Shown: piece by piece, positions 3,339 through 14,519 of the stretch
How the letters are laid out: the number at the start of each line of letters is the position of its first letter
Numbering within the stretch: the stretch's first letter is position 1
NCBI GenBank assembly: GCA_018221025.1
Contig: JAAOXX010000001.1
Span: forward strand, 1 to 28,800
Length of the DNA: 28,800 bases
Source of the DNA: Candidatus Altiarchaeota archaeon
GTDB taxonomy: Archaea; SpSt-1190
Direction: 5' to 3'
Program-made: the position numbers and the translations under genes
The notes under the pieces: generated by a model
What the model saw: the letters and a program-made list of their open reading frames with translations, nothing else
Database searches by the model: none
Told to the model about the DNA's origin: nothing

Positions 3339-4358
3339 GTGGGCGTCCAAATAAAGGATATTGTTGAATGGAAAAAAATATCATTTGACAGATTGGGCGG
3401 AAACAGAGTAGCAATCGATGCATTCAACACTCTTTATCAGTTTATTACAATAATACGACAGAGGGACGGGACACCCCTAATGGATTCACGGGGACGCGTG
3501 ACTTCACATCTTTCTGGGATGCTTTATCGAACTGCAAAACTTGCGGAAAATGGAGTAAAGCCAGTGTATGTTTTTGATGGAAAGCCACCCGAATTCAAAT
3601 TGGTAAGAGCACAGAGAGACAAGGTGAAAAGAGAAGCGGAAAAGAAACTCGAAGAAGCAAAAAAAACAGGAGACGATGAAGGAGTAAGAAAATATGCGAG
3701 TAGGGCTGTCCGTCTTGAAAAACATATGATTGATGATTCAAAAAAACTCTTGACGCTTCTCGGAGTTCCTTGGGTACAAGCACCAAGCGAGGGCGAGGCT
3801 CAGGCAGCTTACATGGCGGAAAAAGGAGATGTCTGGGCCGCAGCAAGCCAAGATTTTGATTCATTACTGTTTGGTGCACCTAAACTAATTCGAAATATGA
3901 CAATGAGTGGGCGTAGAAAACTCCCATTCAAGAATGTATATGTTGATGTTTATCCTGAACTCCTAAGGCTTGATGAAGTTATAGGAGCACTTGGAATAAC
4001 ACGAAAACAACTGATTTGTGTTGGGCTCTTAGTTGGAACTGATTTCAATCCAGGAGGAATAAAGGGGATTGGACCAAAAACTGCTTTGGACTTGGTCCGA
4101 AAAAGGGGATGTGATGCATTAAATGATGTCAAGTGGAAAGCGGAATGGCCATCAATTGAAACAGTCACTAGGTTTTTCTTGAAGCCTCCAACAACAGACA
4201 ATTATGAATTAGTTTGGAAGAATCCAGACACTGACAAACTATTAGATTTTATGGTGGGAGAACATGATTTCTCAGAAGACAGAGTTTTGAAGACAGTCAT
4301 GCATTTTAAACAGGGACTAAAGAAAGGCAGACAAACTGGTCTTGAAGACTGGTTTTAG
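3339..4358 (+). CDS. fen: Flap endonuclease 1
   Basis: MGV start, AIDAFNTLYQF, TSHLSG, PVYVFDGKPP, APSEGEAQAAY, SQDFDSLLFGAP, GTDFNPGGIKGIGPKTAL; C-terminal PIP box QTGLEDWF. Confidence 0.98.
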   Translation: MGVQIKDIVEWKKISFDRLGGNRVAIDAFNTLYQFITIIRQRDGTPLMDSRGRVTSHLSGMLYRTAKLAENGVKPVYVFDGKPPEFKLVRAQRDKVKREAEKKLEEAKKTGDDEGVRKYASRAVRLEKHMIDDSKKLLTLLGVPWVQAPSEGEAQAAYMAEKGDVWAAASQDFDSLLFGAPKLIRNMTMSGRRKLPFKNVYVDVYPELLRLDEVIGALGITRKQLICVGLLVGTDFNPGGIKGIGPKTALDLVRKRGCDALNDVKWKAEWPSIETVTRFFLKPPTTDNYELVWKNPDTDKLLDFMVGEHDFSEDRVLKTVMHFKQGLKKGRQTGLEDWF

Positions 4359-11047: not shown

Positions 11048-14000
11048 ATGAAGAGTGGCTCAAGACTTGAAAAATTGTCAATGAGGGGTTTCAAATCATT
11101 TTCAAAGCCAACCACCCTATTATTTTCACCAGGAATAACTTCAATAGTTGGACCTAACGGTTCAGGAAAGAGCAATGTTCTCGACGCACTTAGTTTTGTA
11201 ATGGGGAGTTTGAGTTTCTCGGCCTTGAGGTCGAAGAGTGCGGAAAACCTTATCTATTTTGGAAAAACCAAGCAGTCAAATGATGCGGAAGTTGGACTTC
11301 GAATAAGGATAGATAGTGAATTTTCAGACGACGGAATTTTGAGTTTGAATCGAAAACTATCAAGAAATGGAACCAGCGTATATAGAATAAATGGAAAACG
11401 TTCAACAAGGCTTGCAACAATCGACATTCTCGCATCAATGCATATATTTCCAGACAGCCATAATATTGTTAGACAAGGAGATATAACGCGGTTTGTCAAT
11501 ATGAGTGCAAGACAACGACGGGAACTAATTGAAGTCGTTGCAGGAATTGAATTATATGAACGCAAAAAAACTAAAGCAATGACTGACCTTGACGGAGTTG
11601 AAATCAAAATTGAAAAAGTTGAGGCGGTTCACGGTGAACGGGTAAGAATTTTTACACAATTAAAGGAAGAGAAAGAAAAGGTCAACCAATTCAATAATAT
11701 GAAGGAATTGGAGGGGCGGGCAAAATATAGTATTCTATTGAATGATATTGAAAACCTAAGAAATAAATTAAATGAATTTAATAAAAACAAATCAAATAAG
11801 GAAGAAAAAATAAATGTGGTTGAGGAGTCAATGAAACAAAAAACTGATGAGTTGATGGTGGTAAGCTCAAATCTTGAAAAACGCGGTATGAGGGAAAAGG
11901 TTGGGGAAATGACGCGTCTCGAACGGTTGAAAATGGAATTTGAAAAGAAAGAAGAAGAAAAGCACAGAGAAACCACTGGTATTGAGAGTTCAAGCAAGCG
12001 CATAGAGTCAATAAAATCACAAGTTGCTGGTTTGAAAAGGCGTCAAAAGGATACTTATGAAGATATCTCAACCAAGCGAAACAGGTTGAAAGACATAAAA
12101 AAGGAAACTCAGGAATACAAGAAATTGCGGGATGAATTAACTGCTAAGGTTTCAAAAGCAAAGCAGGATTTTGAGCAGAGGAAACACAAGTATGAGCGTC
12201 TAAAAGAAAAGAAAGAAAGATGGACTCTCAAAAGTAAAGAGTTATTATTGGAAAAACAATCGAATGAACGCCTTACTCACGAATTAATACGAAAACTCAA
12301 GAATGAGGAGACTCGAAAATTGTCTCTTGAATCGGAAAAGCAAAAAATATTAGACGGAAAAAAAATACTTGAAAAAAGAATTTCATCAATCAATTTACAA
12401 CTGAAGGAGACTGAATCTAAATTGAAATTAGCAAGAGAAGGTGAAAAGGAAATCTTATACTCATCAACATTGCCTGAGGGGGTTAGAGAACTACAAAAAA
12501 AAGGTTACAAGGTGTTGGGTGAAGTGGTGGGGGACCCATCAGAAATAATGCCTTTTGCACTTAGCATTGTTGCATCCGATGCAGAAATTAAAACTATGAA
12601 AGTTGAGAAGGGGTGGGTCTATGTTGTTTCGGATAAAGTAGATATTGAAAAACTCAAAGAACTTTCAAAGATGGGGAGGGCAATTGGAAAAATAACCGGC
12701 CATGAATTCGTTAGTGCTAATCAAAGAAATGCGGAACTGGAAACTTTACAAAAAACAATTGAGTCTCTGGAAAAAAGAAGGGACTCCTTGAGGGAAGAGA
12801 GGTCTACTATTGATGGAAAATTAACACAAACATTTGATATGGAAAAAATGAAAAACACCATCGATTCAATTAAAATAATCAAAAGGGACATTTCTGAGCG
12901 GAAGACGAGATTGGTTGAAATTAATAGTGAAATGAAAGAATTGAGCGGTGAGGTTCTGAAAATGGGAGACTTGAAGGAGCCAACAATTGGAGAGGCTAGA
13001 CGACTCGAAGAAGTTACCTCAAAAATTTACTCATTGGAATCTGAATTAATGAGAACCTCTTCCGAAATAAAGGCGGAAGAAGATACACTAAAGAATTTGA
13101 TTGAGCCGGATATTTTGAATTATGAAAAATTGGGAAAAAGTATATCTGACGAGATAAAAAATAGTAAAGCTACAATCGCAGATACTGATAAGCGAAAAAT
13201 AGAAATTGGTGTTGAAATTAGGGAAGTCGAACTACGAATTGCCAAGATTGAAGGACTTTTATCTAAAGAAATAACAGTGAAATCAGAAATTGAAGAATTT
13301 CTAAAGGCATCTCAAAATACAGTTTATCAATTAAAGTCAGACATTGCCGTACTAAATGAAAAAATAAAGGGAATAACTGGGCGGATACAAAGCCTCGAAG
13401 AATCTAAACCTCAAGGAATTCAGAGAATAGAAAATCCCAGAGATGTGCTTAAACAAGTAGTAAACCAACTTGAACAATTAGGGACCTTAAATTTCAAGGC
13501 AATAGAAGAATTCAAAGAGGTTAGTGGACTTGTTGAGGATATAAGCGACCGTCTTAAAAAATTGCGAGATGAAAAAAACGCAATACTCTCTATGATGAAT
13601 GAAATTGAAAGCCAAAAATTCCAAATGTTCATGGAAACTTTTGAAAAGATAAATGCGAGTTTTTCAAAAATATTTTCTCAGGTAATTGAGGGGAGCAGTC
13701 GGCTCGAAATAGATGGTGATGACCCATTCGAATCAGGAGTCCATATTAAAACGCGAGTACAGCATAGAGACTTACCAACTGAATCTCTGTCCGGTGGACA
13801 AAAGACACTCGCGGCCCTTGCACTAATTTTTGCAATTCAGGAAGTAAAGCCATCACCCTTGTATGTGTTTGATGAAATTGATGCGGCTCTTGACAAACCG
13901 AATAGTGAAAAACTCGCAAAGATGTTTAAGAAAATGTCTGAAACAACACAAATAATTTCAATTACACATAATGACACAATGGTTAAGGAATCCGACCAAA

Positions 14001-14098
14001 TTGTTGGAGTTTACATAAATAAGGGAGCAAGTCGATTAGTCAGTCTTCCTAAAGATAAAGTTATGAAGGAAGCTGAAAGTTGGATTAGTAAAAACTAA
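11048..14098 (+). CDS. smc: Chromosome segregation ATPase SMC (short, divergent hinge)
   Basis: Walker A GPNGSGKSN, Q-loop NIVRQGDI, long coiled coils, signature LSGGQK, Walker B/D-loop YVFDEIDAALD, ITH; no CxxC zinc hook. Confidence 0.92.
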   Translation: MKSGSRLEKLSMRGFKSFSKPTTLLFSPGITSIVGPNGSGKSNVLDALSFVMGSLSFSALRSKSAENLIYFGKTKQSNDAEVGLRIRIDSEFSDDGILSLNRKLSRNGTSVYRINGKRSTRLATIDILASMHIFPDSHNIVRQGDITRFVNMSARQRRELIEVVAGIELYERKKTKAMTDLDGVEIKIEKVEAVHGERVRIFTQLKEEKEKVNQFNNMKELEGRAKYSILLNDIENLRNKLNEFNKNKSNKEEKINVVEESMKQKTDELMVVSSNLEKRGMREKVGEMTRLERLKMEFEKKEEEKHRETTGIESSSKRIESIKSQVAGLKRRQKDTYEDISTKRNRLKDIKKETQEYKKLRDELTAKVSKAKQDFEQRKHKYERLKEKKERWTLKSKELLLEKQSNERLTHELIRKLKNEETRKLSLESEKQKILDGKKILEKRISSINLQLKETESKLKLAREGEKEILYSSTLPEGVRELQKKGYKVLGEVVGDPSEIMPFALSIVASDAEIKTMKVEKGWVYVVSDKVDIEKLKELSKMGRAIGKITGHEFVSANQRNAELETLQKTIESLEKRRDSLREERSTIDGKLTQTFDMEKMKNTIDSIKIIKRDISERKTRLVEINSEMKELSGEVLKMGDLKEPTIGEARRLEEVTSKIYSLESELMRTSSEIKAEEDTLKNLIEPDILNYEKLGKSISDEIKNSKATIADTDKRKIEIGVEIREVELRIAKIEGLLSKEITVKSEIEEFLKASQNTVYQLKSDIAVLNEKIKGITGRIQSLEESKPQGIQRIENPRDVLKQVVNQLEQLGTLNFKAIEEFKEVSGLVEDISDRLKKLRDEKNAILSMMNEIESQKFQMFMETFEKINASFSKIFSQVIEGSSRLEIDGDDPFESGVHIKTRVQHRDLPTESLSGGQKTLAALALIFAIQEVKPSPLYVFDEIDAALDKPNSEKLAKMFKKMSETTQIISITHNDTMVKESDQIVGVYINKGASRLVSLPKDKVMKEAESWISKN

Positions 14099-14147
14099 GC
14101 TTTTAGAAAAAGCTTAACCAAAATTTGTGGAATTTTTGAAAAATGAA

Positions 14148-14245
14148 TATGATGCCTCAGTTATCACACGAGCTTTTCAAAAACCCGTCCCGACGGGTCG
14201 GGAAGCTCGACCAAAACAAAATAAGTATGATGCCTCAGTTATCAC
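14148..14245. repeat. Perfect 20-bp direct repeat pair around a hairpin
   Basis: TATGATGCCTCAGTTATCAC at 14148-14167 and 14226-14245; the 58-bp spacer holds nested inverted repeats. Confidence 0.9.
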
Positions 14246-14302
14246 CTCCTTTTCCTCAACCCCTCACAAGGAGAGTCAGGTCAAGCCACTATCCTCACAG
14301 GC
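14232..14302 (-). ncRNA. Box C/D guide sRNA (two guides)
   Basis: GCC-T-GTGAGGA (C, 14298-14292), 12-nt guide, CTGA (D', 14279-14276), CTCTC/GAGGG stem, TTGAGGA (C', 14259-14253), 14-nt guide, CTGA (D, 14238-14235), GGC; both K-turns have the 3-nt bulge and closing stem; TATA about 24 nt upstream; T-rich tract downstream. Confidence 0.78.
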
Positions 14303-14323
14303 TTAAACCCGTAAGTCGAAACC

Positions 14324-14334
14324 TTATAACTTTC
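14324..14334 (-). promoter_or_regulatory. BRE/TATA promoter of the C/D sRNA
   Basis: GAAAGTTATAA on the minus strand; TTATAA at 14329-14324, about 24 nt before the predicted 5' end. Confidence 0.55.
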
Positions 14335-14342
14335 TCGAAAAA

Positions 14343-14519
14343 TCAGAAATCGTCGGAAAACTTATCTTCAAATTCAGTTTCCTCATTACCAAATTCATCT
14401 TGAAATTGAGTCTTCTTCTTCTTATCGGAGTCGGCCTCTTCCATGCCTTCAAGGAACCCTTTGGCCTCCCAAGATTCATCTTCATCGTACTGATCTTCGA
14501 TACCACTTTCCCCAAACAT
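14343..14519 (-). CDS. Small acidic protein
   Basis: D/E-rich ORF (YDEDESWEAKGFLEGM); SD-like GTGAGGG before ATG 14519. Confidence 0.6.
   Translation of the reverse strand: MFGESGIEDQYDEDESWEAKGFLEGMEEADSDKKKKTQFQDEFGNEETEFEDKFSDDF

Follow-up and report, generated by a model that had tools for sequence, protein, structure and literature searches.

A duplicated box C/D sRNA 3' end in an Undinarchaeota genome, the probable scar of a duplicative hairpin-cassette insertion

The sRNA gene and the two copies of its 3' end

In this work we have analysed a window of 28,800 nt (the whole stretch of DNA under study, contig C2) from a metagenome-assembled genome (MAG), here called G000, which comprises 632 kb in 75 contigs and is 86% complete. 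The MAG belongs to the Undinarchaeota, which are DPANN archaea, and the database records that hold orthologues of the sRNA described below are labelled Candidatus Undinarchaeota. It was compared with the relatives G001-G009 of the family, of which G001 is from the same genus. The minus strand at 14232-14302 carries what is, judging from its boxes, the complementarity of its guides and the presence of fibrillarin in the genome (252 bits, contig C30), an archaeal box C/D sRNA; its assignment also draws on orthologues. The C box GUGAGGA (14298-14292), preceded by GCC, is followed by a D' guide of 12 nt (14291-14280) and the D' box CUGA (14279-14276), and the C' box UUGAGGA (14259-14253) by a D guide of 14 nt, AAAGGAGGUGAUAA (14252-14239), the D box CUGA (14238-14235) and GGC (14234-14232), so that the closing stem is GCC/GGC. 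The sRNA is preceded on the same strand by a TATA-like element, TTATAA (14324-14329), about 22 nt before its first base; by the established spacing of archaeal promoters this is the putative promoter of the sRNA itself. Since the MAG assembly contains no 16S or 23S rRNA genes, rRNAs from relatives were used in the search for guide targets. In the 16S rRNA of G002 the D' guide finds a match in 11 of 12 positions, GUCAAGCCACU, at the top of helix 44; for the D guide, 10 of 12 positions match at the 3' end of 16S rRNA. The two guides are directed to the 3' minor domain of 16S rRNA, the D' guide to the helix 44 site and the D guide to the extreme 3' end, in the anti-Shine-Dalgarno region. A permissive Rfam search gave an sR2 match for the sRNA at 17.3 bits, which is below the gathering score of 42; at gathering thresholds the only Rfam hit in the whole window is a tRNA-Glu.

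The box layout and the guides are shared by 14 distinct orthologous loci in relatives and metagenome contigs. The orthologue set covers six species of the family (G001-G005 and G008); metagenome contigs and GTDB-based genome records contributed another five distinct loci. The box variants UGAUGA, UGAAGA and UGAGGA occur among the orthologues, and position 5 of both the C and the C' box is U, A or G (L005-L009, L011, L022-L032). The sRNA is conserved across the Undinarchaeota. Its convergent neighbour is an SMC gene on the plus strand (11048-14098; Pfam SMC_N, E = 1.4e-47), also recognized by synteny. The distance from the SMC stop codon to the 3' end of the sRNA is 6-30 nt in most orthologous loci; the intergenic region measures 135 nt in this genome.

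The 3' end of the sRNA is present twice in this region, and the duplication is real. The minus-strand 20-mer GTGATAACTGAGGCATCATA occurs in exact copies at 14148-14167 and 14226-14245, which are the only two in the window, whereas 100 shuffles of the window produced none. The complete 632-kb assembly contains exactly these two copies, even when up to two mismatches are allowed. The 20-mer is part of a longer repeat of 28 nt (14140-14167 against 14218-14245) in which 26 of 28 positions are identical and the copies are spaced 78 nt apart. The proximal copy, X (14218-14245, minus strand), belongs to the intact sRNA gene and consists of the final 14 nt of the sRNA, that is the end of the D guide, the D box and GGC, together with a 14-nt trailer that includes a T-run. 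The distal copy, X' (14140-14167, minus strand), is a relic of the sRNA 3' end: it carries a pseudo-D box CUGA (14160-14157) and GGC (14156-14154), then T5 (14143-14139), and lacks a C box as partner. Behind the proximal copy the minus-strand T-run reads T4-G-T4 (14221-14213). X and X' are separated by 50 nt, in which an outer stem, CGAGCTT/AAGCTCG, has its arms at 14203-14209 and 14169-14175 and two overlapping inner hairpins fall inside 14183-14202. An earlier sequence-only reading of this DNA had described the exact 20-mer repeated 78 nt apart, the T-rich tracts behind both copies and the outer stem with its two inner hairpins, and each of these was borne out, the repeat by searches of window and genome, the T-rich tracts in the sequence and the hairpins at the positions first given. 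It had also proposed that relatives be compared for an empty or an occupied site. The second copy of the 3' end is absent from all 14 distinct orthologous loci, so the site is empty in 14 of 14 and the duplication is therefore derived.

Could the duplication be an assembly artefact in which two strain variants of the locus were joined? The source is a fragmented MAG of 75 contigs, which speaks for this. However, the exact repeat of 20 nt falls below the k-mer lengths with which assemblies are usually finished, the copies are distinguished by two mismatches and by unique flanks, and the same architecture is found in independently assembled genomes of the family. An artefact thus appears unlikely on the sequence, and we give it next to no weight. 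A CRISPR mini-array was also set aside, as there are only two copies, Cas1 was not found in the 86%-complete MAG and the repeat is part of an sRNA. An open reading frame of 86 codons on the plus strand (14143-14403) is antisense to the sRNA and spans both repeat copies, and we treat it as spurious.

The hairpin between the copies and its module family

The DNA between X and X' has relatives. A short palindromic module recurs in this genome with the plus-strand motif AAGCTTTTAGAAAAAGCTYRAYCAAAA, and the 50-nt spacer aligns with AAGCTTTTAGAAAAAGCTYRAYCAAAA plus a hairpin in the loop. Catalogues of the genome made with nhmmer and regular expressions contain about 28 copies, 13 of which are perfect 9-bp palindromes with covarying arms; AGC arms go together with an ACCAAA tail, and AAC or ACC arms with an ATCAAA tail. 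One canonical copy, M1 (AAGCTTTTAGAAAAAGCTTAACCAAAA; 14097-14123, plus strand), lies in the window, and its 9-bp palindrome overlaps the SMC stop codon (14096-14098). The SMC stop codon in the window is provided by M1 (14096-14123), and the SMC frame of G001 (L005) is about six codons longer and stops 5 nt from the sRNA; the gain of the module has therefore shortened the C-terminus of SMC. The motif was found in 7 of 9 relatives within the family and in 1 of 7 genomes outside it, with no hits for a reversed-pattern control, and by its distribution the module is specific to this family.

Where do the modules lie? About 12 follow directly after tRNA 3' ends, and there their T-run can serve as a possible terminator. 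Others lie 5-13 nt before tRNA 5' ends or before the leaderless ATGs of long ORFs, which places their TTTT(N)AAAA core near -26; this fits at four tRNAs and three leaderless ORFs. The geometry of the -26 core is the one ground on which we infer that the module may be an archaeal promoter. Several modules of G000 hold other GC hairpins in their loops. At contig C35 (1740-1870) two opposed modules flank a GC hairpin, and C/D-box-like sequences (GTGATGA, 11-12 nt, CTGA) start directly beside both of them, so several sRNA genes may be clustered here.

The nearest analogue of the module, to judge by its resemblance, is the promoter and terminator arrangement of Nanoarchaeum equitans, in which tRNA and sRNA genes have a conserved box A promoter at -26 and a T-stretch terminator, and in which C/D sRNA genes have been associated with genome rearrangement (PMC3491384). 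Both are DPANN archaea in which one strongly conserved promoter keeps a set distance from tRNA 5' ends and the terminators are T-runs. Unlike in N. equitans, the promoter core here lies within a covarying 9-bp palindrome with an AYCAAAA tail, and the module also appears as a putative tRNA-proximal terminator and as cargo between duplicated gene ends.

The hairpin between the sRNA copies, M2 (14169-14216, plus strand), was delimited by alignment with M1, a variant on contig C53 and four canonical modules. It is a palindromic module that holds a 20-nt GC hairpin (14184-14202) in its loop, with the outer stem 14169-14175/14203-14209, and this 20-nt insert, which parts the core of the module from its tail, is common to the C53 copy. 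The C53 relative (766-801) is 94% identical to M2 over 36 nt, and another M2-type copy lies on contig C1 of G001. Read on the minus strand, M2 presents the GC hairpin followed by T5 (14183-14179) and would be terminator-like for the sRNA. A consensus terminator scan likewise picked out a terminator-like minus-strand site (14203-14188, then TTTTT), and a GC-rich stem with a T-run downstream of a gene is the composition expected of an intrinsic-terminator-like element. A tRNA in G001 and a protein gene on C53 are also followed by the M2-type hairpin with its T-run. No flanking duplication was detected at these two copies, and the window is the only M2-type site that has one.

Does the second copy of the sRNA end have a function of its own? 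The sequence-only reading had suggested that the distal D box gives a longer isoform with a different guide, switched by the hairpin; an antisense RNA against the sRNA 3' end, driven from M1, is another form of the same idea. The distal CUGA-GGC is intact and might form a pair with the 5' GCC-C box, folding predicts two alternative inner hairpins, and M1 is canonical, has the orientation of a promoter and lies about 20 nt upstream of the relic. Nevertheless, the duplication occurs in no relative, and T4, a second T4 and a hairpin with T5 stand between the two D boxes. The alternative guide, GCUCGUGUGAUAA, matched neither the 16S and 23S rRNAs of G002 and G005 nor the tRNAs of G000 with up to two mismatches, whereas both real guides match 16S rRNA. 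The minus-strand RNA has a predicted fold of -18.2 kcal/mol (z = -1.6), not significantly better than shuffles, and the two inner hairpins are divided between the minimum-energy structure and the centroid, one in each. The plus strand folds more stably (-21.2 kcal/mol, z = -4.3). An antisense RNA from M1 would meet T5 almost directly after its predicted plus-strand start, and relatives have nothing comparable. The long isoform with its different guide is thus not upheld, and a functional duplicate of either kind seems to us extremely unlikely. A bistable RNA switch was rejected separately, since the fold is no better than shuffles and the second inner hairpin, weakened in the G001 copy, is not kept there.

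A simpler origin has to be considered. The plus strand reads M1, spacer, X', M2, X, which has the form of two units in tandem, and slippage or unequal crossing-over could have copied a unit of about 70 nt composed of terminator module, spacer and sRNA 3' end. One of the modules would later have acquired the GC hairpin, while the 15-nt spacer disappeared and compensatory changes built up in the arms; various GC hairpins occupy module loops elsewhere, so a later gain is plausible. The two pairs of sequences do not seem to have diverged equally, though. X and X' differ at 2 of 28 positions (7%), whereas M1 and M2 differ at about 6 of 27 (about 22%) and by two indels, small counts in both cases. 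The alignment of M1 with M2, again over few positions, gives about 21 matches in 27, an insertion of 20 nt and a spacer difference of 15 nt. The higher divergence between the modules is suggestive evidence against a tandem origin and, with so few positions, is not statistically strong.

Hairpins between duplicated gene ends elsewhere

The layout of the locus, a gene end followed by a cassette and a relic of the same gene end, is not confined to the sRNA. We scanned G000 without bias for short-range direct repeats and compared each tRNA end with its flanks, and the same layout was present at seven tRNA loci. It also recurs in this genome at two protein-gene boundaries. The repeat and tRNA-end scans placed it on contigs C10, C16, C18, C33, C48, C65 and C70, and the remaining output of the direct-repeat scan consisted of coding tandem repeats only. 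In a control in which tRNA ends were compared with random genome segments, a score of at least 13 was reached in 3 of 1980 comparisons. The 3' end is duplicated at tRNA-His, at tRNA-Asp, at a tRNA on C65 and at a tRNA on C10, where there are three copies; the 5' end is duplicated at tRNA-Gly(CCC), tRNA-Leu(GAG) and tRNA-Leu(CAG), with the module as the insert. At tRNA-Gly and tRNA-Leu(GAG), on C48 and C33, no second module was found upstream of the relic, which keeps the native GTT leader and an older TATA-like element. Without an upstream module and with the native leader kept, these sites therefore need an insertion and not a simple tandem duplication. Relatives show the layout at several tRNAs and at the 3' end of a 5S rRNA gene. 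The tRNA relics might also be taken for split-tRNA or 3'-half genes, but intact genes adjoin them and they have no T-stem partner, so that we rejected this reading.

Some of these sites are elaborate. On contig C44 of G008 (3460-3570; L021) a 5S rRNA gene has its final 14 nt or more repeated on either side of two tandem modules, and the relic abuts the stop codon of a convergent protein gene. On C10 of G000 (106-290; L059) the 3' end of a tRNA (GGGTTCAAATCCCCCTGACCCCATT) occurs three times within 185 nt, the copies being separated by the hairpin called cassette A below and by a second hairpin insert of 59 nt; three copies with two inserts point to serial insertions at one site. The 20-nt duplication on C7 of G000 (1015-1170) is the whole spacer between two divergent start codons.

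The same insert can lie within different duplications. Cassette A is a hairpin of 26 nt, GGAGGTATCGGAACCTTGGTTCTGAT, which is identical on C10 and C12 of G000 and on C35 of G001. On C10 it is flanked by a 25-nt duplication of a tRNA 3' end, on C12 (1435-1510; L063) by a 20-nt duplication of the ribosome-binding site and start of a protein gene, and on C35 of G001 by a 19-nt duplication of the tRNA-Gly 3' end. The family contains 17 copies in 6 of 10 genomes, with a covarying closing stem pair (A-T or G-C); the cassette occurs in G000, G001, G002, G005, G006 and G009, and G003, G004, G007 and G008 lack it. Among the 16 copies that could be evaluated, 13 have flanking duplications of 16-40 nt, mostly about 20 nt; the other three show chance matches of 7-8 nt only and serve as an internal null. 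The second, downstream duplicate starts 0-9 nt after the cassette A hairpin, and the geometry in the window is alike, since the M2 stem starts 8 nt beyond the end of X, and X' begins 1 nt past that stem. Cassette B (GGTTTAGAAAGGGGCGAAGCCCCTTCT) has a 20-nt duplication on C7, and the same pattern was seen on C65 and at a tRNA-Gly gene of G005. Cassettes A and B are thus each found at unrelated sites, with a duplication proper to each site.

All 17 copies of cassette A (L056-L072) begin with GGAGGTR, and this heptamer is also found in the D guide of the sRNA (GGAGGUGAU). The left border of the duplication in the window falls within it. The shared heptamer may be a coincidence or a clue to target choice. 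Perhaps the likeness between the GGAGGUG of this guide and GGAGGTR, the conserved left end of the commonest cassette, made the sRNA a target.

These sites bear directly on a tandem origin of the sRNA duplication. True arrays of module, leader and gene start do exist and lend it some support: G002 has a 73-nt unit repeated three times on C29 (2990-3330; L020) and an array with a 64-nt unit on C14/C13 (L012, L013). Each unit of these arrays is made of the module, the leader and the first 14-18 nt of the tRNA, and it appears that an existing duplication can be amplified by unequal crossing-over. On the other side, the relics on C48, C33, C12 and C7 have no second cassette upstream, which calls for an insertion-type event, and cassette A shows different duplications at unrelated loci. 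We therefore leave local tandem duplication a small but real chance as the origin of the sRNA locus.

A classical att scar was the other proposal of the sequence-only reading. According to it, a virus or plasmid with an integrase entered the 3' end of the sRNA gene and later lost its interior, which left attL and attR 50 nt apart. Duplication of an ncRNA gene end that keeps the gene intact is a hallmark of integrases (PMC9897764, PMC3293823), and the relics of tRNA 3' ends begin within the T-loop, which is a known sublocation of integrase sites. Partial tRNA gene duplications at attL and attR left by integrative elements go back to Reiter 1989 and Williams 2002, as cited in PMC9897764, and a case with a 5' tRNA fragment comes from Caldiarchaeum (PMC3293823). 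The locus resembles these in that a repeat of an ncRNA end brackets an insert, a working copy is paired with a relic, and relatives have an empty site. It differs in its insert, which has 50 nt and no genes where integrative elements have 2-120 kb, in its target, a C/D sRNA, in repeats that range from 16 to 40 nt around the same cassette, and in the lack of an integrase match. A search with PF00589 found no tyrosine recombinase in the 86%-complete MAG, so that not even a XerA-type dimer resolvase was detected. The genome search, which the earlier reading had proposed for the 20-mer and the spacer together with a search of mobile elements, returned the two known 20-mer copies and no others, and the viral contigs of IMG/VR gave no match to the 20-mer, M2 or cassette A and nothing like an attP. 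Further, more than 15 sites have 34-160 nt between the repeats and the same small hairpins, which is unlike the outcome of independent internal deletions. What stands of the att proposal is therefore the form of the locus, in which the copies over the gene end bracket an insert, the gene is intact and 14 loci are empty; the type of element does not stand, since the insert is a 50-nt hairpin cassette, and no element genes, integrase or attP-like match were found. We hold a classical att scar to be very unlikely.

Other small mobile sequences come closer in size. REP/REPIN sequences with their RAYT transposases, the palindromic elements of Rickettsia and MITEs either leave their target unduplicated or duplicate a short stretch of constant length, and need a recognizable transposase. 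The cassettes share with them the character of short, non-autonomous hairpin repeats at gene ends which have spread through a lineage. The duplications here are long and variable instead, with 16-40 nt around cassette A and no fixed length, and neither a Y1 transposase nor TnpB was detected in the 86%-complete MAG. Spacer integration by CRISPR systems, ectopic integration included, duplicates a repeat, and a duplication of about 28 nt flanking an insert of about 30-50 nt is common to both. Here, unlike in CRISPR integration, the MAG gave no match to Cas1, only two copies exist, the 'repeat' belongs to a functional sRNA and the 'spacer' to a hairpin family.

Probable origin of the duplication and its meaning

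Taking this evidence together, we regard it as likely that the locus is the scar of a duplicative insertion of a hairpin cassette and that the distal copy is a relic. The C/D sRNA and SMC genes would have converged almost end to end in the ancestor. In the lineage leading to this MAG, cassette M2, a copy of the palindromic promoter/terminator module typical of the family that carries a GC hairpin in the loop, would have entered the sRNA about 14 nt short of its end and brought with it a target duplication of about 28 nt. As a result of this duplication, the gene would have kept a complete 3' end (X), and the second copy (X') would have been displaced downstream as a relic. The sRNA is presumably transcribed from its own TATA promoter, with termination either in the T-runs of X or at M2, where the GC hairpin is followed by T5. 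X' would make no sRNP because it lies behind these stops and has no C box as a partner, and M1 and M2 together may insulate the convergent SMC and sRNA transcripts from each other. Taken as a single locus, this is probably a recent and neutral scar.

On this account the locus would be one outcome of a process which recurs in the family, where hairpin cassettes insert at the ends of tRNA, 5S rRNA, C/D sRNA and protein genes with target duplications of 16-40 nt, mostly about 20 nt, and where events survive if the duplication rebuilds the gene end. How might the cassettes move? Three routes are conceivable: the template may switch at a stalled fork so that another module is copied, illegitimate recombination facilitated by homology may bring in DNA of a related strain, or an unrecognised nuclease may cut about two helical turns apart. 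It is possible, and we suggest it tentatively, that hairpin cassettes, including the cell's own promoter and terminator palindromes, are moved in Undinarchaeota and other DPANN archaea by a mechanism not yet described, free of integrase and transposase, which makes staggered duplications of about 20 nt, re-caps gene ends and spreads promoters and terminators. Our literature search found no paper describing such cassettes in archaea; the search was incomplete and novelty is unproven.

For annotation, it follows that the relic sRNA and tRNA ends seen here should not be read as extra genes, isoforms or riboswitch-like switches. The locus is a clean example, with a C/D sRNA as target and a promoter/terminator module as cargo, of an apparently undescribed mobility process. 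A compact archaeal genome can in this way gain terminators and promoters between abutting genes without the loss of a gene, since genes survive the insertion because the accompanying duplication rebuilds their ends. Should a single dedicated mechanism be responsible for moving the cassettes, this would represent a new mode of DNA mobility that makes regulatory elements, and the same mechanism might also generate split or intron-bearing RNA genes in DPANN archaea.
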